From: a bacterium
GTDB lineage: Bacteria; Bacteroidota; Ignavibacteria; UBA10030
Assembly: GCA_043803945.1 (NCBI GenBank)
Contig: JAZDJN010000042.1
Span: 42,821 to 106,820, forward strand
Reading direction: 5' to 3'
Length of the DNA stretch: 64,000 bases
The notes beneath the pieces are model-generated. The model was not told where the DNA came from. It did no database searches and saw nothing but the letters and a program-made list of their open reading frames with translations. A program made the position numbers and the translations under genes. Every line of letters starts with the position of its first letter. Position 1 is the first letter of the stretch. This document shows positions 31,461 to 38,903 of this stretch, one piece after another.

Positions 31461-31658
31461 AAAAAACAAGTACCGTATCGTCTGCAATACTTATGAAAAC
31501 AATGGCGAGAGACGATTTCTAATTGTGGGAAAATCCTTCATCCTCCAGTCTCCAGCAATTGGTGTCTTTTGCATTGCATACGACTTATTACTTTAGTAGC
31601 TTCGACCCTAAAATTTCTGATCTGAAACGATCTGTAACGAACGATGGGTATTCAATTG

Positions 31659-33872
31659 ATGAAGCGACTCTTCTTCCTTGCCATCCTGCCCTGTGTACTC
31701 TTTGCCCAGGGGGTGGATATTCGAGGCGTAATCTCCGATTCAACGACAAAAGAAAAAATTCCATTTGCAAATATTTATATTCTTGGAACCAGCAAAGGAG
31801 CTAATGCAAATGTCGATGGATTCTATCTGATTGCCAAAGTACCGGTTGGGACCTATGAAATTGCGGCAAGCGCAATCGGGTATGGACGAAAAGTAGTGAA
31901 GGTCACTGTCAGCGGCAACGCTCCTATTGTTCTGAATTTTCTCCTTCCATCACGGGCAGTGGAATCGGAAGAAGTCCTTATTTCGGGCTCAAGAAAATTC
32001 GACCGGGCTGAGATGCGTGTCAGTACCCATGTGATCGAGAAAGAAGATGTGCGGCAGGTGCCTATGCCGGTCCAACCGGATATCTTTCGATCATTGAAGA
32101 TGCTTCCTGGGATCGTCTCAACCAGCGATGTTAACTCCCAATTTCATGTACGCGGCGGAGCGGGGAATCAAAATTTAATCCTGTTCAATGGGATTAAAAT
32201 CTATAATCCTTTCCATGCATTTGGTATCTTCAGCCTTTTTGATCCCGACATTATCCGCAGTACCGAGGTATTTACCGGAGGATTTCCACCCGGGTATGGG
32301 AATCGGCTCTCGTCTGTCATTTCCATGTCAACCAAAGATGGTCGCCGTGACGGAATCGGCGGAAAAGCAAGCGTGAACTTTATTTCGGGAAAACTCATGG
32401 TCGAAGGGCCGCTCCCAAAAGATGCATCTTTTGTCGTCAATGGACGCCAGTCTCTTTTCTCAAGCACCTTCAAACGGTTTCTTGATAAGGATGTACCTCT
32501 TTCCTTCTATGATTTTTTCATCAAAGGTTCTATGCCGCTCGGCGGAGAGGCGTACTTCCGTACTCATGCATTGCTGACCTCCGATGAACTCAATTCACCG
32601 AATATTGAAATGCCATCATACCGTTGGCGCAATAAAGCGTTTGGGATATCACTTTCAGGGTTGTTTATGGACCGCTCCTATTTTTTTACCGAGGTGCAGT
32701 TGGATGAGTACTACGCTGAGAGCAGGCCGAATCACTCTCAGGGAACACCGGCTTCCACAAAGGTGAAGGATGGGTGGGTACGAGCTGAAGCAACATACTA
32801 TACCGATACTCAGGATCAATTATTTGCCGGCTTTGAAACATCCATGATGAACTTCGAGAATGAATTCACCAACAGCTATGGTGTCAAACGCACCCTCGAT
32901 GATAACTTGTTTCAAATGAATGCATGGATGCGCTTGCAGAAAACGATGAAAAACAAACAAATTGATTTTGGATTCCATGTAGATATCCCGAGACTATTCA
33001 AATCGATTCTGGGCAGCGGGTTTTCCATCTACGATATCCAACCTCGCATGAATTTGAACTACACAATTGCATCGTGGCTCCGATGGAAAGCGACTTACGG
33101 ATTCTTCACACAAAAAATCGTAACCATCGCAAATGAGGATGATGTCATTTCTCTCTTCGAATCTTGGATGCCAATACCGGGGGATCTTAAGATCGAGCAG
33201 TCGCAGCATGTTGTTATTGGCATGGAAGCATCACCAACGCCATGGATCGTCACCACGCTGGAGGGTTACTATAAAGACTTTGGTTCATTGGTGAGTTACA
33301 ATAGAGAAAAGGTTGATGCGAATGATCCGGATTATATTAATGCCACAGGGAATGCGTATGGGGTGGAGGCACTGCTCCGGTATGGCGATCGGATGATCGA
33401 CCTTTACCTGACCTATTCTTTGGCCTTTACCACCATCGATGCAAATGGATTTGTCTATCCACCGCGCTACGATCGAAGGCATAACATCAACGCTATGATC
33501 GTTCTTCATCCCATACCGCGGCTCGACGTTTCATTCCGCTGGGAGTTTGGCAGCGGGCTTCCTTTCACACAATCGTTCGGCTATTATGACCGTTTCTCGT
33601 TGCCAAGGATTAACGAAGGAAGTATCCTCAATGAAACAGGCAAGCCATATCTTGTGTTGGGAGAAAAGAATGCCGCCCGGATGCCTGCATTCCACAGGCT
33701 CGATATCAGCGGAAACTATAGATTCTCCATCAACGCCATCCAGGTGAATCTGGGAGGAAGTATCATTAATGTCTACGACCGGAAGAATGTTTTTTACTTT
33801 GACAGGAAATCAGGAAAACAGATCAATATGCTCTCCTTCTTCCCGTCACTAATGATAGAGATGGAGTTTTAA
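31659..33872 (+). CDS. TonB-dependent receptor with carboxypeptidase-like N-terminal domain
   Basis: Signal peptide, IRGVISDSTTKEKIPFANI, plug (VRGG..QN...YNPFH..G..S.F), YDRRH, RLDI, C-terminal F. Confidence 0.9.
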   Translation: MKRLFFLAILPCVLFAQGVDIRGVISDSTTKEKIPFANIYILGTSKGANANVDGFYLIAKVPVGTYEIAASAIGYGRKVVKVTVSGNAPIVLNFLLPSRAVESEEVLISGSRKFDRAEMRVSTHVIEKEDVRQVPMPVQPDIFRSLKMLPGIVSTSDVNSQFHVRGGAGNQNLILFNGIKIYNPFHAFGIFSLFDPDIIRSTEVFTGGFPPGYGNRLSSVISMSTKDGRRDGIGGKASVNFISGKLMVEGPLPKDASFVVNGRQSLFSSTFKRFLDKDVPLSFYDFFIKGSMPLGGEAYFRTHALLTSDELNSPNIEMPSYRWRNKAFGISLSGLFMDRSYFFTEVQLDEYYAESRPNHSQGTPASTKVKDGWVRAEATYYTDTQDQLFAGFETSMMNFENEFTNSYGVKRTLDDNLFQMNAWMRLQKTMKNKQIDFGFHVDIPRLFKSILGSGFSIYDIQPRMNLNYTIASWLRWKATYGFFTQKIVTIANEDDVISLFESWMPIPGDLKIEQSQHVVIGMEASPTPWIVTTLEGYYKDFGSLVSYNREKVDANDPDYINATGNAYGVEALLRYGDRMIDLYLTYSLAFTTIDANGFVYPPRYDRRHNINAMIVLHPIPRLDVSFRWEFGSGLPFTQSFGYYDRFSLPRINEGSILNETGKPYLVLGEKNAARMPAFHRLDISGNYRFSINAIQVNLGGSIINVYDRKNVFYFDRKSGKQINMLSFFPSLMIEMEF

Positions 33873-33981
33873 TAATGCATCGACATAAGCCTATCGCGTC
33901 GAAGGAGAGAATAGTTCCATGAGCATGAGTCCAGGAAATTCTATGAAAGAGTGTTTCATTGCAGATGAGGGGAGCAAGTGA

Positions 33982-34932
33982 ATGAAGAAACCAGTTATTG
34001 CCATTATTGCCCTATTATGCTTCTTTAGCGGCTGCAAGGAGACATTTTCACCCAGTGCGCCCTTTGAAAAGCGTTTGGTGATCTACAGCCTGATGAATAC
34101 CAATCAGAGCCGTCAATTCGTCCGAGTAGCCACCTCCTATGATGCTGCGAATTATGATCCCTACATGCAACTGTCCGATCCGCAGGTTGTCAATGCAGCG
34201 GTCGAACTGAGTGATGGAAAGGTAAAAGTATTACTGCATGACACGCTTGTTACGCGGGACGATACTTCGCGTTATCATGATAAGATTCATGCTTATGTCG
34301 CAGATGACTTTAAACCACTTCAGGGGAAGACGTATTCTCTCACAATTACAGCACCGGAACAGGGGAAGGTTGTAGCTTCAGTGGCAATTCCTGAAAGGGG
34401 ATATCTTACGATTACAAGCTATGGACCGTTGATCTCCCTCCTTTCAACGAGTACTGTGATCCAAGGAAGTGCCCGGCTTGCAGGCGGTGCCTATGGTTAT
34501 GTGGTAAGGATGTTCATCGACTATGAAGTTAAAGAAAGCAATGGCACATGGCTCCAGTATCGTGCGGAGATGCCAAGTGTTTATGATTCTACTGATGGAG
34601 ATAATAAGAAATGGTATCCGCAATACAAGAGAAATCTTAATCGAGTCTATCCATCGTCAACTATACTCTTTGGATTTGCGAAGGAACCGTACGTTGGACT
34701 TGTTACTCGGGTGCTAGACAAGTACAGCAGACAAGACATTCGAAACACGACGGCCTGGTTCTATCTCTATCAGATCGATAAAAACCTGTATAACTATTAC
34801 AGTATCGCCAATAACTTTCAAGATGAATATTCGATCAGGGTCGATATGCCTGATTATACAAGCATTAAGGGTGCGTACGGAGTCTTTGGGGGTGTATCCG
34901 TCGATTCCCTTTCAATCTTGCTGCGATGGTAG
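33982..34932 (+). CDS. DUF4249-like lipoprotein (TonB receptor partner)
   Basis: Lipobox FSGC; C-terminal YTSIKGAYGVFG motif; directly downstream of the receptor. Confidence 0.75.
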   Translation: MKKPVIAIIALLCFFSGCKETFSPSAPFEKRLVIYSLMNTNQSRQFVRVATSYDAANYDPYMQLSDPQVVNAAVELSDGKVKVLLHDTLVTRDDTSRYHDKIHAYVADDFKPLQGKTYSLTITAPEQGKVVASVAIPERGYLTITSYGPLISLLSTSTVIQGSARLAGGAYGYVVRMFIDYEVKESNGTWLQYRAEMPSVYDSTDGDNKKWYPQYKRNLNRVYPSSTILFGFAKEPYVGLVTRVLDKYSRQDIRNTTAWFYLYQIDKNLYNYYSIANNFQDEYSIRVDMPDYTSIKGAYGVFGGVSVDSLSILLRW

Positions 34933-35293
34933 AGCTTTTAACAATGCGTTGGGATTTGGCATCTCCCAATCCGGACGTTATCTCCGGCATTTTCTTTACG
35001 ATGGATTCAATGCCGATCTGAAGGGCCGGATTGTTTTCGATGGCCTGGATGCTCATGTTGGTGGATTTTCTTGGTTCCATATCCCCTTTTCACGGTTACA
35101 ATCGGAGCGTGTGAAAAACCATGATCCCAGACCCTCTCTCGAGGAGCGATATAAAAACGAAGAGCATTACCTCCAGCTTATCGACCGCTCAATCAACGAT
35201 CTGGTAAAAAGAAGATTTCTGCTTCAAGACGATGCTCCGGCACTTCGGGATCGGGCCCGACAATATTGGAAGTTCACGACGACAGTCCAATAG
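34933..35293 (+). pseudogene. Relic of an alpha/beta-hydrolase-domain protein, lacking its start and internally deleted
   Basis: GISQSGRYLRHFLYDGFNAD..GRIVFDG core joined directly to the C-terminal IPF...DPRPSLEERY...LVKRRFLL motif. Confidence 0.6.
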
Positions 35294-35354
35294 CAGGGCG
35301 GTCGTTCTCCGTACTCTTCTCCGTAACAATTACCGGAGTTCAAGACATCCTTGC

Positions 35355-36269
35355 TTAATAGAAGAGTGAATCGTCGGAGTCGATATTCTTCCTTTGATAT
35401 CCTCGTTTTGCCTTTTGTCCTGATTTCAGTATTCCAGATAATCCTTCCCAATCATCGTTCTCCAGGCATTTTTGGATCCGCCTGGATATTTTTTCGTACC
35501 TCTCGAATGCCATCTGAATATTTTTTTTATTCGCTTGGAGAATTCCTATCATCATTTCTGGTGATGATGCCGCCAGGCGTGTACCGCTTTCAAAGCCGGT
35601 TCCGATGAAGGGCAAATGGTCTTTCGTTACTTTCTTCCAGCAGGCAGAAACCAGAGTGGTGGCCAGAAGATAGGGGAGATGACTTGTGTAAGCCAGAGTG
35701 CGGTCATGTTCCTGAGGGTCAACCTCAATGGGTATTGCATTGATCTTTTTGATTATGGTTTTAATAAGTTCCAGATCCCTTTTCGATCGGTTGGTGTGAT
35801 TCATAAGGCTGAGGAAAAAATATCGATGGCTGAAGAGCTGGGCGTTCCACCCATGGTGCCCGATATGTTCGGTTCCCGCCATTGGGTGGCCGCCGATAAA
35901 TCGTGTTCTTCGATGATGCCGGTGGATCCAGGAAAGAATATCAACCTTCGTGCTTCCCAGATCCATGACAAGAGGAGAACTCCGGCTCTGGCGCAACTGC
36001 TCAATGTAGTGGTGCATGTGATGAACAGGGGTGGCGAGAATGATGAGATCGGTTTCTGGCGGGCGTTCATCGAACGGTACGACACGTATTCCCAGACGCC
36101 GTTGTGCGTGGCGGTTCACTCGTGAATCAACATCCCATCCCGAATACGTTTGAAAAATCTTATTCTTCTGCGAAGCGAGAATGAACGATCCGCCTATTTG
36201 TCCCAGGCCAACCACAAAGAGATGTTTTGGGAGTCTCGACTCTGAAAGATTGTTTCGCGTTGTGCTCAC
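35355..36269 (-). CDS. tyrA: Prephenate dehydrogenase
   Basis: VGLGQIGGS, DLGSTK, GGHPMAG, EHDRTLAYTSHLP, TRLAASSP. Confidence 0.92.
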   Translation of the reverse strand: MSTTRNNLSESRLPKHLFVVGLGQIGGSFILASQKNKIFQTYSGWDVDSRVNRHAQRRLGIRVVPFDERPPETDLIILATPVHHMHHYIEQLRQSRSSPLVMDLGSTKVDILSWIHRHHRRTRFIGGHPMAGTEHIGHHGWNAQLFSHRYFFLSLMNHTNRSKRDLELIKTIIKKINAIPIEVDPQEHDRTLAYTSHLPYLLATTLVSACWKKVTKDHLPFIGTGFESGTRLAASSPEMMIGILQANKKNIQMAFERYEKISRRIQKCLENDDWEGLSGILKSGQKAKRGYQRKNIDSDDSLFY

Positions 36270-37291
36270 TGCTTCAGGCCTTTGTGTTGTGAGTGCATCT
36301 GCTTAAGTTTTTGCATCATGGATGTAAACATTGGAAAATCCAGACTCTGAGGACCGTCAGACTTTGCCCTCTCAGGTTCTTTGTGTACTTCCACCATCAC
36401 GCCATGGGCTCCGACAGCTAATCCAGCGCAGGCGAGTGAAGGAACAAGGCTTCGATTTCCCGTCGCATGGCTCGGATCGATAATGATCGGAAGGTGCGAA
36501 AGTTGCCGAATTAACGGAACGGCTGAGATATCGAGTGTATACCGGGTTGCTGTCTCAAACGTCCTGATTCCGCGTTCACAGAGAATGACATTATAATTTC
36601 CTCCCTTAAGTATATACTCAGCTGCTAACAAAAATTCTTCAATGGTCGCCATTGGTCCTCGTTTTAAGAGTACGGGTTTGTCGATTGTACTGACTTCATT
36701 AAGGAGGGCGAAGTTCTGCATGTTTCTGGCGCCGATCTGAACGATATCGGCATAGCGTGCCACGACCTCCACATCCTGTGGAGAGAGGACCTCAGTCACA
36801 ACGGGCAGCCCGGTCTGTCGGCCTGCTTCGGAAAGGTACTCAAGCGCTTCAACTCCCAACCCCTGGAAGCTATAGGGTGACGTCCGTGGTTTGAATGCGC
36901 CGCCACGGAGGATGTGAGCTCCCTGGTCCTTTACGAAGTGAGCTGTTTCAAGAATCTGGTCGCGTGATTCTACCGAGCAAGGGCCGGCAATAACCGTGTA
37001 CGTATCCGCACAGATGGTATGTGTCCCGAGGGCAATGGTGGTATCGTCATATTTAATATCTCTTGAAGCAAGCTTGAAGGGCTTCGTGATGGTGATGACA
37101 TTTTCTACGCCGGCAAAGACTGAGAGATGTGAACGGAGAGCAGATCGTTGATCGCCGATTTCTCCAATCAGCCCAATGATGGCATTGCTTTCACCCTGTG
37201 AGAGGTGAGGGCGAAAACCGTTTTCTTCGATAAAGGCAATGACATTTTGAATTTCGTGAGGTTGCGAACCTCGTTTCATAATGACAACCAT
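36266..37291 (-). CDS. aroF: DAHP synthase type I-beta with N-terminal ferredoxin-like regulatory domain
   Basis: [45 protein letters not shown]; start set at MVVIMK behind an AGAAGGAG RBS. Confidence 0.93.
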
Positions 37292-37295
37292 AGCA

Positions 37296-37673
37296 TTAAC
37301 TCCTTCTGACTGATTGGTGTTGAACCAGATCAGGCCGTAATTGTTTGGCCTTTCCGATGTATTGATGGCGTATTTGATCCGGCCTCTTGTCGATGTGTGC
37401 AAAAACCAACATCCGCAGAAGTTTCCGCGGCGCATCGACCACATCCATCTCCTGTGAACAAAGAAATGGAATAAACCGATACTCAGCTTTTCTGCTGATG
37501 CCAGCCGGAAATGCGGCATTGAGGTCGGTCGTTGCAGTAATAAAAATTGCACAGAGGTCATCCGGTTTAAGCCGGTTCGCCCTCAAGAGTGCCTGAAGTA
37601 ATCGATCGGAAGAATGCAGTATCGACTCCTTCGAATTTTCCTTCACGTAAATAGCTCCGCGTATTCCTCTCAT
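37296..37673 (-). CDS. aroH: Chorismate mutase, AroH class
   Basis: MRGIRGA, T.DLNAAFPA, QEMDV, H.YIG.AKQLRPDL; GAAAGGAG RBS. Confidence 0.93.
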   Translation of the reverse strand: MRGIRGAIYVKENSKESILHSSDRLLQALLRANRLKPDDLCAIFITATTDLNAAFPAGISRKAEYRFIPFLCSQEMDVVDAPRKLLRMLVFAHIDKRPDQIRHQYIGKAKQLRPDLVQHQSVRRS

Positions 37674-37691
37674 AGTGACTCCTTTCTGGTT

Positions 37692-37732
37692 AAAAACAAA
37701 GAAGCCCTTCCTGGTGTTTCCAAGAAGGGCTT
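37692..37732 (-). terminator. Intrinsic terminator (attenuator) in the aroH leader
   Basis: AAGCCCUUCUUGG-AAACA-CCAGGAAGGGCUU, a 13-bp stem with one G-U pair, followed by CUUUGUUUUU, just upstream of the aroH RBS. Confidence 0.88.
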
Positions 37733-37755
37733 TTGATTAGAGATGAATTGTAGTG

Positions 37756-37848
37756 TTATGCCATTCTCTTGCCACCAGGGTGTAATGGTGAGGTCGCGTA
37801 ATAATAATACGCGTATCGGACTACGTTATACTTGGTTGCCTTTGTCAT
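37756..37848 (-). CDS. Tyrosine-rich leader peptide (30 aa) of the aroH-aroF-tyrA operon
   Basis: ATG ACA AAG GCA ACC AAG TAT AAC GTA GTC CGA TAC GCG TAT TAT TAT TAC ... TAA = MTKATKYNVVRYAYYYYATSPLHPGGKRMA; 6 Tyr; below the ORF-track size cutoff. Confidence 0.82.
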   Translation of the reverse strand: MTKATKYNVVRYAYYYYATSPLHPGGKRMA

Positions 37849-37888
37849 TGTCGTTTCGAATGAGTAATCTGTTTCACATCTCATCTAC

Positions 37889-37917
37889 ACAGTAAAATAT
37901 TTTCAACCAAAATTCAA
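37889..37917 (-). promoter_or_regulatory. Sigma70-like promoter for the leader-aroH-aroF-tyrA unit
   Basis: TTGAAT-N17-TACTGT with AT-rich upstream tract. Confidence 0.55.
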
Positions 37918-38473
37918 GTAAAAAAACCAAAAGGGTAATTATTCTGATTAGTTTGATGGCCACTACAGCAGCCAACCTTGCCTTTGATAATAATCCATAA
38001 TACTTTCTCCTAGAACAACACTCTTCGACGAATGGCGGACATTCCTTTGGGATTTGTTAAGGGTTTGTTTCAGTGTGGAAGTGGCGCCAAATTCTATTAC
38101 TTCTTTAGTATCCTGCGCAGCGGGGATATTCATTAGCGCCGATGGTAAAGTGTCCATGACTATAGAAAAAACGATGAGCCAGCTTCTCGGCCACCCACCA
38201 GGCAACCGATCACCGGCTCATCAAGAAGGAGGAGAGGACACTGGCGTGCCCCTCACTAGAAAAAACGGGTGTTTGCGGCAAAAGTTGTCCTATGCTTAAA
38301 TATTTCTTCACTCAGGCGTTCCATAACTGAGACGGTTATTATGCATGAATTGGCTGGATTTCTTGTTGCGGCAATTCCCGATTGGCAAACTTGCCTTTCA
38401 TCTGAATCTCTCTTAGTTTCTGCCGGGTATTGGAGCCTAATGATCGTGGCGAATTTGCCAATTGAGGTCAACG

Positions 38474-38719
38474 ATGAGTATTGAAGAGCATGGTATGCTA
38501 GAGACAATTCTGAAAGAAAAGGGATTTATGAAAGATTTATTCGATGCGATCCCCTTTCCAATATTCATCGTCGATTCGGATGTGAATATTCTCTATTGGA
38601 ATTTTGCCGCCAACGGGATGCTGGGTGAAGAGCAGGTTCTCAAAGTCGATGTTGGATTTACCCATGGGATTTGCCCGGATTGTGTTTCCAAGTTGTCGCC
38701 AGCGAGTGCGAAAAATTAA
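38474..38719 (+). pseudogene. Internally deleted PAS-domain protein relic
   Basis: PAS start (LFDAIPFPIFIVDSD..ILYWN.AA) fused directly to a C-terminal FTHGICPDC motif; the intervening PAS/PAC and the first CxxC are absent. Confidence 0.55.
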
Positions 38720-38903
38720 TCGGTAGATATTGCTGACACAGTTCTCTGACTCTCAGTCTCTCATAATATTCCATGTCATAGAGTGACATACTCACAACTT
38801 CTCTTAAGACATCAATGAAATCCTTTTAAGCACTGGTTCTGATTCCCTGCGGTATTCGGAATAAGAGAGAACCGGATTAATCCACAACGCACTCAGGGAT
38901 TCC

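Follow-up and report, generated by a model that had tools for sequence, protein, structure and literature searches.

A tyrosine operon and the leader in front of it

The minus strand of the window (by which we mean the whole 64,000-nucleotide stretch of DNA analysed here) carries genes for an AroH-type chorismate mutase, a type I-beta DAHP synthase with an N-terminal ferredoxin-like domain and a prephenate dehydrogenase (PDH), in that order (Table 1). The genes are tightly packed: the true start of the DAHP synthase gene is the ATG at 37291, behind a GAAGGAG motif and 4 nt past the aroH stop, and the start of tyrA overlaps the DAHP synthase stop (GTGA). Profile matches agree with the preliminary description of the locus, according to which the operon comprises these three enzymes and contains no prephenate dehydratase. 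We consider tyrA to be the last gene of the operon because the next genes lie on the other strand; a search downstream of tyrA found no terminator-like site.

Table 1. Features of the operon and its leader, with positions in the window
Feature	Positions	Strand	Basis
Putative sigma-70-type promoter: TTGAAT (37917-37912), 17-nt spacer, TACTGT (37894-37889)	37917-37889	minus	read from sequence
Leader ORF, 30 codons plus stop, MTKATKYNVVRYAYYYYATSPLHPGGKRMA; ATG 37848 to TAA 37758-37756	37848-37756	minus	read from sequence
Sixth Tyr codon of the leader ORF	37830-37828	minus	read from sequence
Regulatory codon cluster Tyr-Ala-Tyr-Tyr-Tyr-Tyr (TAC GCG TAT TAT TAT TAC)	37815-37798	minus	read from sequence
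Small hairpin CGCGUA...UACGCG, Tyr codons in loop	37813-37795	minus	pairing search and MFE folds
"Protector" hairpin, CACCA (37790-37786) with UGGUG (37777-37773)	37790-37773	minus	folding, -6.0 kcal/mol
Antiterminator 5' strand: CCUGGUG (37779-37773), GAGAA (37768-37764), GGC (37762-37760)	37779-37760	minus	folding
Antiterminator 3' strand: GCC (37730-37728), UUCUU (37726-37722), CACCAGG (37716-37710)	37730-37710	minus	folding
Intrinsic terminator: 13-bp stem 37732-37720 / 37714-37702, AAACA loop, U-rich tail 37701-37692 (CUUUGUUUUU)	37732-37692	minus	folding
aroH, AroH-type chorismate mutase, 125 aa; Shine-Dalgarno AAAGGAG 37685-37679, ATG 37673	37685-37296	minus	CM_1, E 5.5e-36
Type I-beta DAHP synthase with N-terminal ferredoxin-like (FXD) domain	37291-36266	minus	DAHP_synth_1 8.5e-86; FXD 1.7e-17
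tyrA, prephenate dehydrogenase, GTG start	36269-35355	minus	PDH_N 1.1e-20 / PDH_C 2.9e-19

A leader of about 190 nt precedes aroH. The promoter hexamers proposed for it, with their 17-nt spacer, are present, but the site is weak: it lies in AT-rich surroundings, matches the consensus at 7 of 12 positions and fails the rule of our promoter scan, which did not list it. The promoters found at the equivalent place in the relatives described below are much better (TTGACA-N17-TAxxxT). The 30-residue ORF with its YYYY run was confirmed by translation of the minus strand and contains six Tyr codons and neither Phe nor Trp, five of the Tyr codons forming the regulatory cluster (Y5 F0 W0) and the other lying upstream of it. 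A further ATG at 37884, in frame with the leader ORF, would give a 42-residue version with one additional Tyr and one Phe. Leaderless initiation of this longer version is possible, since its ATG lies only 4 nt past the -10 hexamer. Neither start has a Shine-Dalgarno sequence, whereas strong ones precede the aroH and DAHP synthase genes. In this organism a Shine-Dalgarno sequence is found at the first start of 15 of 37 long ORFs, against a background of 11%.

Apart from the YYYY of the leader ORF, no frame of the six across the 64 kb contains a run of at least four Tyr codons (naive expectation 0.046). The repeat is preceded by a start codon in the Tyr frame alone; the remaining frames read Leu-Leu-Leu (LLL) or Ile-Ile-Ile (III), and these readings of the TAT repeat were rejected for lack of a start. 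TAT is the common Tyr codon of the window (350 occurrences against 168 of TAC) and there is therefore no rare-codon bias in the leader. TATTATTATTA is a simple repeat, and slippage could make such a sequence. The Tyr codons of the cluster lie in the loop of a small hairpin, which may act as a pause site or may be melted by the translating ribosome; similar hairpins enclosing aromatic codons are also found in the leaders of relatives.

These features bear on whether the ORF is translated at all. If it were not, the transcript would be a non-coding leader or small RNA ending in a terminator that is constitutive or otherwise regulated (protein-, Rho- or NTP-dependent), with a run of Tyr codons that is only an incidental TAT repeat. 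Both ATGs without a Shine-Dalgarno sequence, the weak promoter match and the low complexity of the repeat fit this explanation, as does the fact that conservation in close relatives was not seen, the relatives at hand being at most 55% (AroH) or, among the matches listed, 57% (DAHP synthase) identical. Against it, the only run of at least four Tyr codons in the 64 kb falls precisely in the gap separating a promoter-like site from a terminator, in front of a tyrosine operon and in the only frame that has a start codon. Moreover, the antiterminator 5' strand falls within the final seven codons of that same frame, and the same arrangement recurs at 20 analogous loci, mostly likewise without a Shine-Dalgarno sequence. 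We regard an untranslated ORF as quite unlikely and presume that the leader is translated.

Competing leader structures and ribosome position

The 206-nt leader folds with a z-score of -3.65, only 1 of 200 shuffles being as stable. The strong intrinsic terminator reported just before aroH is borne out by folding, with 13 pairs, a 5-nt loop and a computed stem energy of about -22 kcal/mol (-21.7 to -22.1). Its competitor is also present. CCUGGUG in the leader is perfectly complementary to CACCAGG at 37716-37710, and CAAGAG (37771-37766) can pair with UUCUUG (37726-37721), one of the pairs being G-U, as originally noted apart from the G-U pair; the register drawn from these pairings has an energy of -13.4 kcal/mol, whereas the best register, CCUGGUG:CACCAGG with GAGAA:UUCUU and GGC:GCC, reaches -19.8 kcal/mol in nascent RNA from 37785 to 37710. 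The nascent RNA has an MFE of -21.0 kcal/mol; when its upstream strand is dinucleotide-shuffled 1000 times, the value is -13.6 +/- 2.2 kcal/mol (p = 0.004). Combined over seven leaders, this excess gives a Fisher value of 1.6e-5, and an independent duplex test gives a Fisher value of 1.1e-5. The 3' strand of the antiterminator is made up of the terminator 5' arm, the loop and five nucleotides at the start of the terminator 3' arm. The duplex test used only the 5' arm and loop, and for the window by itself it yields p = 0.19; the relevant pairing extends into the beginning of the 3' arm.

We modelled folding with a 30-nt ribosome footprint placed nowhere, at Tyr12, at Tyr14, at Tyr17 or at the stop codon. 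In nascent RNA the probability of the antiterminator is 0.99 in the absence of a ribosome and equally with the ribosome stalled at any of the three Tyr codons. It falls to 0.19 with the ribosome at the stop codon, the sole tested position that lowers it. In the model, therefore, what decides the outcome is that a ribosome arriving at the stop covers the antiterminator 5' strand, and not, as had been proposed, that a stalled one unmasks the antiterminator. At equilibrium the terminator dominates in every ribosome state (P = 0.97-0.98), so that the switch depends on an assumption about the kinetic order of folding.

The role originally given to the protector hairpin is not supported by this analysis. 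CACCA does lie 7 nt past the last Tyr codon, but its pairing with UGGUG has a probability of 0.00 in the nascent transcript and of 0.41-0.95 only after the terminator has formed. In the folding model the hairpin is weak and probably not decisive. In footprint-constrained folding a stall leaves the antiterminator free and arrival at the stop blocks it. A trpL-type protector (1:2) pairing that gives termination without translation was not seen in the folding model, in which the antiterminator forms instead, and the weak protector predicts read-through if the leader is wholly untranslated, unlike trpL. The 1:2 pairing is a feature of the trpL model that is not required in every attenuator.

The arrangement is probably a ribosome-mediated transcription attenuator that acts as a sensor of charged tRNA-Tyr and governs the three-gene operon for chorismate mutase, DAHP synthase and prephenate dehydrogenase. 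Transcription would begin near 37884 and a ribosome would translate the short leader ORF. With ample Tyr-tRNA the ribosome would reach the stop codon at 37758-37756, where its footprint would cover the antiterminator 5' strand (37779-37760); the 13-bp terminator stem (37732-37702) would then form and transcription would stop before aroH. With scarce Tyr-tRNA the ribosome would stall on the YAYYYY cluster (37815-37798), which lies some 20 nt 5' of the antiterminator strand. That strand would be free to pair with the terminator 5' arm, loop and first 3'-arm bases as they emerge (-19.8 kcal/mol), so that no terminator would form and the operon would be transcribed.

Aromatic leaders at other DAHP synthase loci

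The AroH relatives recovered (n = 28) are all at most 55% identical to the protein of the window, and the four nearest (P0002-P0005, 52-55%) come from metagenomic sources. The DAHP synthase query matched at least 601 stretches of genome contigs; the 80 loci among the matches listed show 50-57% identity and do not include the window's own species, and nearer relatives may exist. aroH lies directly upstream of the DAHP synthase gene in 12 of these 80 listed loci, and in six of the 12 it is preceded by a promoter, an aromatic mini-ORF and a terminator. In all, aromatic leaders are found just upstream of the operon in 20 of the 80 listed distant loci, which belong to Chloroflexota, Acidobacteriota and one Clostridia MAG. 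A relaxed scan placed 21 of its 50 matches within the 6.9% of the search space that lies in the target zone (binomial p = 1.5e-10). Three of the target-zone matches are likely to be false (L028 3683, which is another frame at the same site, and L057 4548 and L069 4787, both within aroH), and the relaxed scan passed over L006 and L063. A strict scan passed over L028 and the window's own leader, the latter because its U tract is interrupted.

The leaders of the relatives resemble that of the window in layout, with a promoter, a mini-ORF carrying a Tyr/Phe/Trp cluster and a terminator, after which comes the first gene with its Shine-Dalgarno sequence. The six that precede aroH are also similar in geometry, with 11-16 codons from cluster to stop and 46-60 nt from stop to U tract. 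The relatives' leaders often have no Shine-Dalgarno sequence or start 8-12 nt past the -10 hexamer. The Chloroflexota leaders, with 11-17 codons from cluster to stop, precede the same aroH, DAHP synthase and prephenate dehydrogenase gene order as in the window. When the window leader was aligned with six Chloroflexota leaders, however, mean column identity was 51%, the window terminator did not align and nothing beyond the codon cluster was alignable, and the comparative support is therefore one of analogy, not homology. With the elements of the device in place, the antiterminator exceeding its shuffles and 20 of 80 loci showing analogous arrangements, the device type originally assigned (a leader-peptide attenuator), its Tyr-codon signal and its Tyr-branch target are all sustained.

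The codon mix of the leaders tracks the enzymes of the operon: leaders are Tyr-rich with prephenate dehydrogenase and Phe-rich with the dehydratase, and contain Trp only with a lone DAHP synthase. The ratio Y/(Y+F) is 0.33-1.0 in seven PDH-only operons and 0.22-0.5 in four PDT-only operons (one-sided Mann-Whitney p = 0.015), and Trp is present in none of eight leaders of chorismate-mutase-first operons but in all nine leaders from loci at which no aromatic gene other than DAHP synthase was seen (Fisher p = 4e-5); both p values are inflated by relatedness. The chorismate-mutase-first operons are mostly from Chloroflexota and the DAHP-synthase-only operons mostly from Acidobacteriota. Relatives with the same operon usually have mixed Tyr/Phe clusters (e.g. 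L026 with Y4 F5 and L057 with Y5 F3), and across the three groups Tyr is mixed with Phe in every leader except L073 (YYWY). The purely Tyr leader of the window forms the extreme of the series.

Relation to known regulatory systems

The classical leader-peptide attenuators are trpL, pheL, hisL, thrL and leuL of E. coli. As in the window, these systems (summarised in PMC11802643) have a promoter-proximal mini-ORF with codons for the end product and an intrinsic terminator before the first gene, the antiterminator uses the terminator 5' arm, and the position of the ribosome selects the structure, as is proposed for the window. The terminator exceeds the antiterminator in stability in E. coli and in the window alike, which makes the choice a kinetic one. 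The window differs in that Tyr would be sensed, in that the stop lies 13 codons past the cluster rather than a few, and in its very weak 1:2 protector (-6 kcal/mol), lack of a Shine-Dalgarno sequence and lack of an Rfam leader match.

The closest precedent is the aroR leader that precedes the aroF operon of Corynebacterium glutamicum (Neshat et al. 2014), which is described in PMC11802643 and PMC4046766 as a ribosome-mediated attenuator of a DAHP synthase operon with the aromatic leader codons Phe-Tyr-Phe, responding to Phe limitation and unaffected by Tyr. Compared by these descriptions, it differs from the window leader, in which six Tyr codons are accompanied by neither Phe nor Trp, and the operon of the window also encodes a chorismate mutase and a prephenate dehydrogenase. 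In Acholeplasma, comparative genomics has predicted uORFC-13-1 upstream of aroF, likewise a uORF with an intrinsic terminator before a DAHP synthase gene; unlike the window leader, it is described as having an RBS and a U run that yields at least one Phe codon, acting as a sensor of Phe speed, and as confined to Acholeplasma and environmental sequences (PMC8632094). Literature searches found no description of a Tyr-run leader, PMC2965389 contains no mention of tyrosine, aroF, aroH or aromatic, and the account of aroR in PMC11802643 as unresponsive to Tyr accords with the earlier statement that no Tyr-codon leader has been experimentally characterised.

The behaviour of aroR, which is reported to respond to Phe and not to Tyr (PMC11802643), also raises the question of whether the leader of the window is translated and attenuates but is not specific for Tyr, sensing instead general translation speed, ribosome availability or aromatics broadly, with a Tyr run that merely slows the ribosome. 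The mixed Tyr/Phe clusters before the same operon in relatives (L026 and L057) point in this direction, and the folding model needs only a late arrival of the ribosome at the stop. In the window, however, both the cluster and the additional upstream codon are exclusively Tyr, and across 21 leaders the codon mix matches the branch enzymes, which makes amino-acid-specific sensing hard to avoid. We consider non-specific sensing unlikely and retain attenuation in response to tyrosine, by way of charged tRNA-Tyr, as the preferred reading.

The usual controls of tyrosine genes are the TyrR repressor (PMC11802643) and T-boxes, the latter classically in Firmicutes (PMC1262725). Tyr T-box leaders and TyrR share with the window their target, the genes of aromatic and tyrosine biosynthesis, and Tyr T-boxes likewise respond to the charging of tRNA-Tyr and work by way of a terminator/antiterminator pair. 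In the window it would be a ribosome translating the leader that does the sensing, in place of a DNA-binding protein or of direct contact between tRNA and RNA. Since a terminator/antiterminator pair is common to all such systems, a riboswitch, a T-box or an RNA-binding protein of TRAP or PyrR type might in principle set the choice, but this is very improbable: the leader is short, with no conserved aptamer-like fold in common with relatives, and a scan of the window at gathering score found no Rfam family, T-boxes and amino-acid operon leaders included. At E <= 10 nothing relevant and no T-box was found between 37300 and 38400, the sole matches near the leader being to an unrelated sRNA model (21.8 bits, cutoff 95) and to Bacteroidales-1 (E = 8). 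In 13 related loci Rfam gave a tRNA match only and no leader family, T-box or riboswitch. T-boxes, riboswitches and known leader families were rejected on these scans, which largely exclude the known families; none of the aromatic leaders of DAHP synthase operons, in the window or its relatives, is represented in Rfam 15.

Leader-peptide attenuation is a textbook mechanism, and what would be new here is tyrosine as the sensed amino acid. An all-Tyr leader before a compact tyrosine operon would fill a gap and provide a simple natural sensor of Tyr-tRNA. On balance we lean towards a broader view, in which the window holds the first purely Tyr-sensing leader-peptide attenuator and represents one end of an undescribed multi-phylum family (Chloroflexota, Acidobacteriota, some Clostridia and this FCB-like organism) whose codon mix is tuned to the branch enzymes, with Tyr for prephenate dehydrogenase, Phe for the dehydratase and all three residues for a lone DAHP synthase, and many of whose members are translated without a Shine-Dalgarno sequence or leaderless. 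If the codon mix does track the enzymes across 21 leaders from several phyla, attenuator specificity would have been retuned by codon changes alone, and the pattern would aid the annotation of operons from uncultured Acidobacteriota and Chloroflexota, as to both function and regulation. The other genes of the window, which include a SusC-like TonB receptor and a DUF4249 gene, are unlike those of Chloroflexota.

A tyrosine-rich leader upstream of aroH

The minus-strand operon encoding an AroH-type chorismate mutase (aroH), a DAHP synthase (DAHPS) and prephenate dehydrogenase (PDH, tyrA) is preceded by a leader that combines a Tyr-rich mini-ORF with an intrinsic terminator. The best explanation of this arrangement is probably a tyrosine-sensing leader-peptide attenuator, in which, according to our folding models, the antiterminator would be occluded by a ribosome at the leader stop codon. 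As noted in the preliminary description, the operon contains these three genes and no pheA, the gene for prephenate dehydratase (PDT). The aroH stop and DAHPS start are separated by 4 nt, and both genes are preceded by strong Shine-Dalgarno sequences. A 431-aa DAHPS ORF (36266-37561, minus strand) that overlaps aroH by 266 nt was rejected as a first-ATG artefact, the Pfam domains starting from residue 91. No terminator-like site was found past tyrA at 35100-35500; the next genes are convergent, on the other strand.

Re-reading of the minus strand returned a 30-aa leader peptide identical to that first described, while the ORF listing contains a 42-aa form (37884-37756). Over all 64 kb of the window and in all six frames, YYYY is the sole run of at least four Tyr codons, compared with 0.046 expected under independence, an expectation that flatters its uniqueness since the TAT repeat is low-complexity DNA. 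The alternative frames across this repeat encode Leu-Leu-Leu and Ile-Ile-Ile, both without a start codon. TAT is the common Tyr codon in the window (350 versus 168 for TAC), so no rare-codon effect is expected in the leader.

The promoter is the weakest element of the leader: the hexamers and 17-nt spacer proposed initially are present, but they match only 7 of 12 consensus positions and fail the promoter scan rule. The leader ORF also lacks a preceding Shine-Dalgarno sequence, a signal that the organism does employ. Among 37 long ORFs such sequences occur at the first start in 15 and at some early start in 30, against a background of 11%. With the alternative upstream ATG 4 nt past the putative -10 hexamer, it is conceivable that the 42-aa form is translated as a leaderless ORF. 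Most of the analogous leaders considered below likewise have no Shine-Dalgarno sequence and several, Acidobacteriota among them, begin 8-12 nt past the -10, so that its absence here weighs less. Leaderless regulatory mini-ORFs are reported in mycobacteria in one preprint (bioRxiv 10.1101/834739).

Leader and operon features in the window, and loci with analogous leaders
Feature	Position	Strand	Basis or remark
-35-like hexamer TTGAAT	37917-37912	minus	AT-rich stretch, 17-nt spacer to -10
-10-like hexamer TACTGT	37894-37889	minus	sequence reading
Alternative upstream ATG, in frame with ATG 37848	37884 (37884-37882)	minus	sequence reading
Leader ORF ATG, 30-aa form	37848	minus	sequence reading
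Tyr-Ala-Tyr-Tyr-Tyr-Tyr codon cluster	37815-37798	minus	sequence reading
Small hairpin, Tyr codons in loop	37813-37795	minus	inverted repeat
Leader stop codon TAA	37758-37756	minus	sequence reading
Antiterminator pairing 1	CCUGGUG 37779-37773 with CACCAGG 37716-37710	minus	folding
Antiterminator pairing 2	GAGAA 37768-37764 with UUCUU 37726-37722	minus	folding
Antiterminator pairing 3	GGC 37762-37760 with GCC 37730-37728	minus	folding
Terminator hairpin, 13 bp	37732-37720 / 37714-37702	minus	followed by CUUUGUUUUU; pattern scan, inverted repeat
aroH, AroH-type chorismate mutase	ATG 37673	minus	AAAGGAG upstream, past terminator
Type I-beta DAHPS with ferredoxin-like regulatory domain, 341 aa	start 37291 (36266-37291)	minus	GAAGGAG-ATG
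PDH (tyrA), last operon gene	GTG start overlapping DAHPS stop	minus	sequence reading
Leader-bearing loci	~100-1400 nt upstream of DAHPS match		L004, L006, L011, L013, L022, L026, L028, L033, L037, L038, L045, L054, L057, L060, L061, L063, L066, L070, L073, L079

Antiterminator folding and ribosome position

The terminator before aroH was recovered both by a pattern scan and as an inverted repeat and folds at -22.1 kcal/mol; the proposed CCUGGUG/CACCAGG complementarity is exact over 7 nt. Of 200 dinucleotide-shuffled versions, 199 fold less stably than the 206-nt leader (z = -3.65). When folding was simulated at successive transcript lengths, the antiterminator (-19.8 kcal/mol) became the most stable fold once the polymerase reached 37710, sequestering the terminator's entire 5' arm and loop together with the initial 5 nt of its 3' arm. 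The register proposed originally for these segments reaches only -13.4 kcal/mol compared with -19.8 for the best. Shuffling the upstream strand 1000 times gave -13.6 +/- 2.2 kcal/mol versus -21.0 for the nascent fold (p = 0.004); the complementarity is not a chance result of composition.

With the ribosome represented as a 30-nt footprint forced single-stranded, the folding model gives an antiterminator probability of 0.99 without a ribosome and also for ribosomes stalled at Tyr codon 12, 14 or 17, falling to 0.19 for a ribosome at the stop codon, where the footprint (~37773-37744) includes most of the antiterminator upstream strand. Once transcribed, the complete terminator is the equilibrium winner in every ribosome state (P = 0.97-0.98), so the outcome must be kinetic and set by the first structure formed; classical attenuators are likewise decided kinetically. 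The preliminary description had proposed a protector hairpin, CACCA (37790-37786):UGGUG (37777-37773), with CACCA masked by a stalled ribosome. This hairpin is weak (-6.0 kcal/mol) and has a probability of 0.00 in the nascent RNA, so in this model the choice would be made when a ribosome reaches the stop codon and occludes the antiterminator strand, and not through the protector. An untranslated leader is consequently predicted by the model to read through, in contrast to trpL.

Analogous leaders upstream of DAHPS genes

Among 28 AroH matches none exceeded 55% identity, and the nearest four were metagenomic. A genome scan with the DAHPS of the window as query returned at least 80 loci (50-57% identity) from many phyla, with the window's own species absent among the matches listed. 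aroH lies directly 5' of DAHPS in 12 of the 80 loci listed, and six of these, all from Chloroflexota, carry within the 250-nt stretch preceding aroH, in order, a promoter (good TTGACA-N17-TAxxxT), an aromatic mini-ORF, a terminator and a strong aroH Shine-Dalgarno sequence. Their codon clusters include YSYYYYF (L066), YFAYYYAY (L013) and YRYFYFYYF (L057). No comparable leader was found before aroH in L005, L018, L020, L021, L024 or L069. The Chloroflexota leaders share the geometry of the window (11-16 codons from cluster to stop, 46-60 nt from stop to U tract), and in five of the seven leaders, window included, the best partner of the terminator 5' arm finishes within about one codon of the leader stop. 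Antiterminator complementarity exceeds that of shuffles for the seven-leader set (Fisher p = 1.1e-5 and 1.6e-5 in two tests), although not for L026 and L057 taken singly (p = 0.13-0.29). Outside the codon cluster the window leader does not align with those of Chloroflexota, and the comparative support is by analogy.

A wider scan of both strands of the 80 loci looked for short frames that carry an aromatic cluster and precede a hairpin with a U tract. In relaxed form it gave 50 matches, 21 of which (19 loci) fall on the same strand within 1400 nt upstream of DAHPS, a zone representing 6.9% of the space scanned (binomial p = 1.5e-10). Three of the 21 are likely false: one in L028 is a second frame of the same site, and L057 4548 and L069 4787 are inside aroH. 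The L006 and L063 leaders were detected by a stricter scan only. After context reading, 20 of the 80 listed loci are counted as carrying such a leader, made up of a promoter, an aromatic-rich mini-ORF and a terminator; going by record titles they are ten Acidobacteriota, eight Chloroflexota, one Candidatus Aquilonibacter and one Clostridia. In 13 loci scanned against Rfam 15 only a tRNA matched, with no family for the analogous leaders. Two related Acidobacteriota loci show a hairpin where the leader ORF ends, CCGGUAUUGGAG...CUCCAAUCCGG in L037 (4880-4910) and CCGGUAUUGGGG...CCCCAAGCCGG in L038 (4881-4911). The A-to-G and U-to-C changes between them appear compensatory by eye and, if so, support a real structure at this position.

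Sensed amino acid and genomic neighbourhood

Operon content was assigned by Pfam on downstream genes, and Tyr, Phe and Trp residues were counted per cluster; L011, L045 and L063 are loci whose downstream genes fall outside this comparison or past the locus end. The Tyr share, Y/(Y+F), in operons with PDH and no PDT is 1.0 in the window, 0.83 (L013), 0.44 (L026), 0.33 (L033), 0.62 (L057), 0.83 (L066) and 1.0 (L073), versus 0.22 (L004), 0.29 (L006), 0.25 (L028) and 0.5 (L061) in those with PDT and no PDH. Trp codons occur in none of eight leaders of operons headed by chorismate mutase, the enzyme that channels chorismate irrevocably towards Phe and Tyr, and in all nine where DAHPS is the sole aromatic gene seen. 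Both contrasts (one-sided Mann-Whitney p = 0.015 and Fisher p = 4e-5, respectively) treat loci as independent and ignore kinship, chorismate-mutase-first operons being mostly Chloroflexota and DAHPS-only operons mostly Acidobacteriota. Even with this reservation, amino-acid-specific sensing would predict such a pattern, and the window is its extreme, combining a pure Tyr cluster with a minimal chorismate mutase-DAHPS-PDH operon.

The attenuation mechanism is textbook; neither tyrosine as the sensed amino acid nor a broader family in which the codon mix is tuned appears to have been described. The primary paper on the C. glutamicum aroR leader is reportedly Neshat 2014. This Phe-Tyr-Phe leader precedes the aroF operon (PMC11802643, PMC4046766) and, according to a 2025 review, responds to Phe limitation, Tyr availability being without effect (PMC11802643). 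Acholeplasma has a Phe-codon uORF motif upstream of aroF, according to a 2021 survey (PMC8632094), and for E. coli aroF a table citing Camakaris 1980 gives an "attenuator sensing tyr-tRNA" as a hypothesis (PMC2659441). A further paper reports no RNA elements upstream of Actinobacteria tyrosine operons and lists tyrosine as T-box-regulated in other species (PMC1262725). No description of a Tyr-run leader emerged from our full-text literature search; comparative attenuator studies in subscription journals might include such predictions.

The window's operon and leader resemble the Chloroflexota loci, in contrast to a neighbouring SusC-like CarboxypepD_reg/Plug TonB-dependent receptor followed by a DUF4249 protein (31644-34932), a combination characteristic of Gram-negative bacteria of the FCB group. 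The likeness may stem from horizontal transfer or from convergence. No ORF of at least 100 aa lies in the ~1 kb preceding the leader promoter (37920-38900), and the two small minus-strand ORFs of this stretch (37963-38205 and 38256-38507) had no Pfam match; it may represent decayed genes or non-coding DNA. The window also encodes chemotaxis genes and hydrogenases. With the receptor and its DUF4249 partner, these genes suggest an anaerobe that is Gram-negative and possibly of the FCB group, and not one of the Chloroflexota. Directly 3' of a hybrid histidine kinase gene, an ORF at 26786-28408 matches the NCBIfam "anti-phage-associated helicase HerA" (NF042944, E 1.3e-124) with 417 bits, the curated cutoff being 850.
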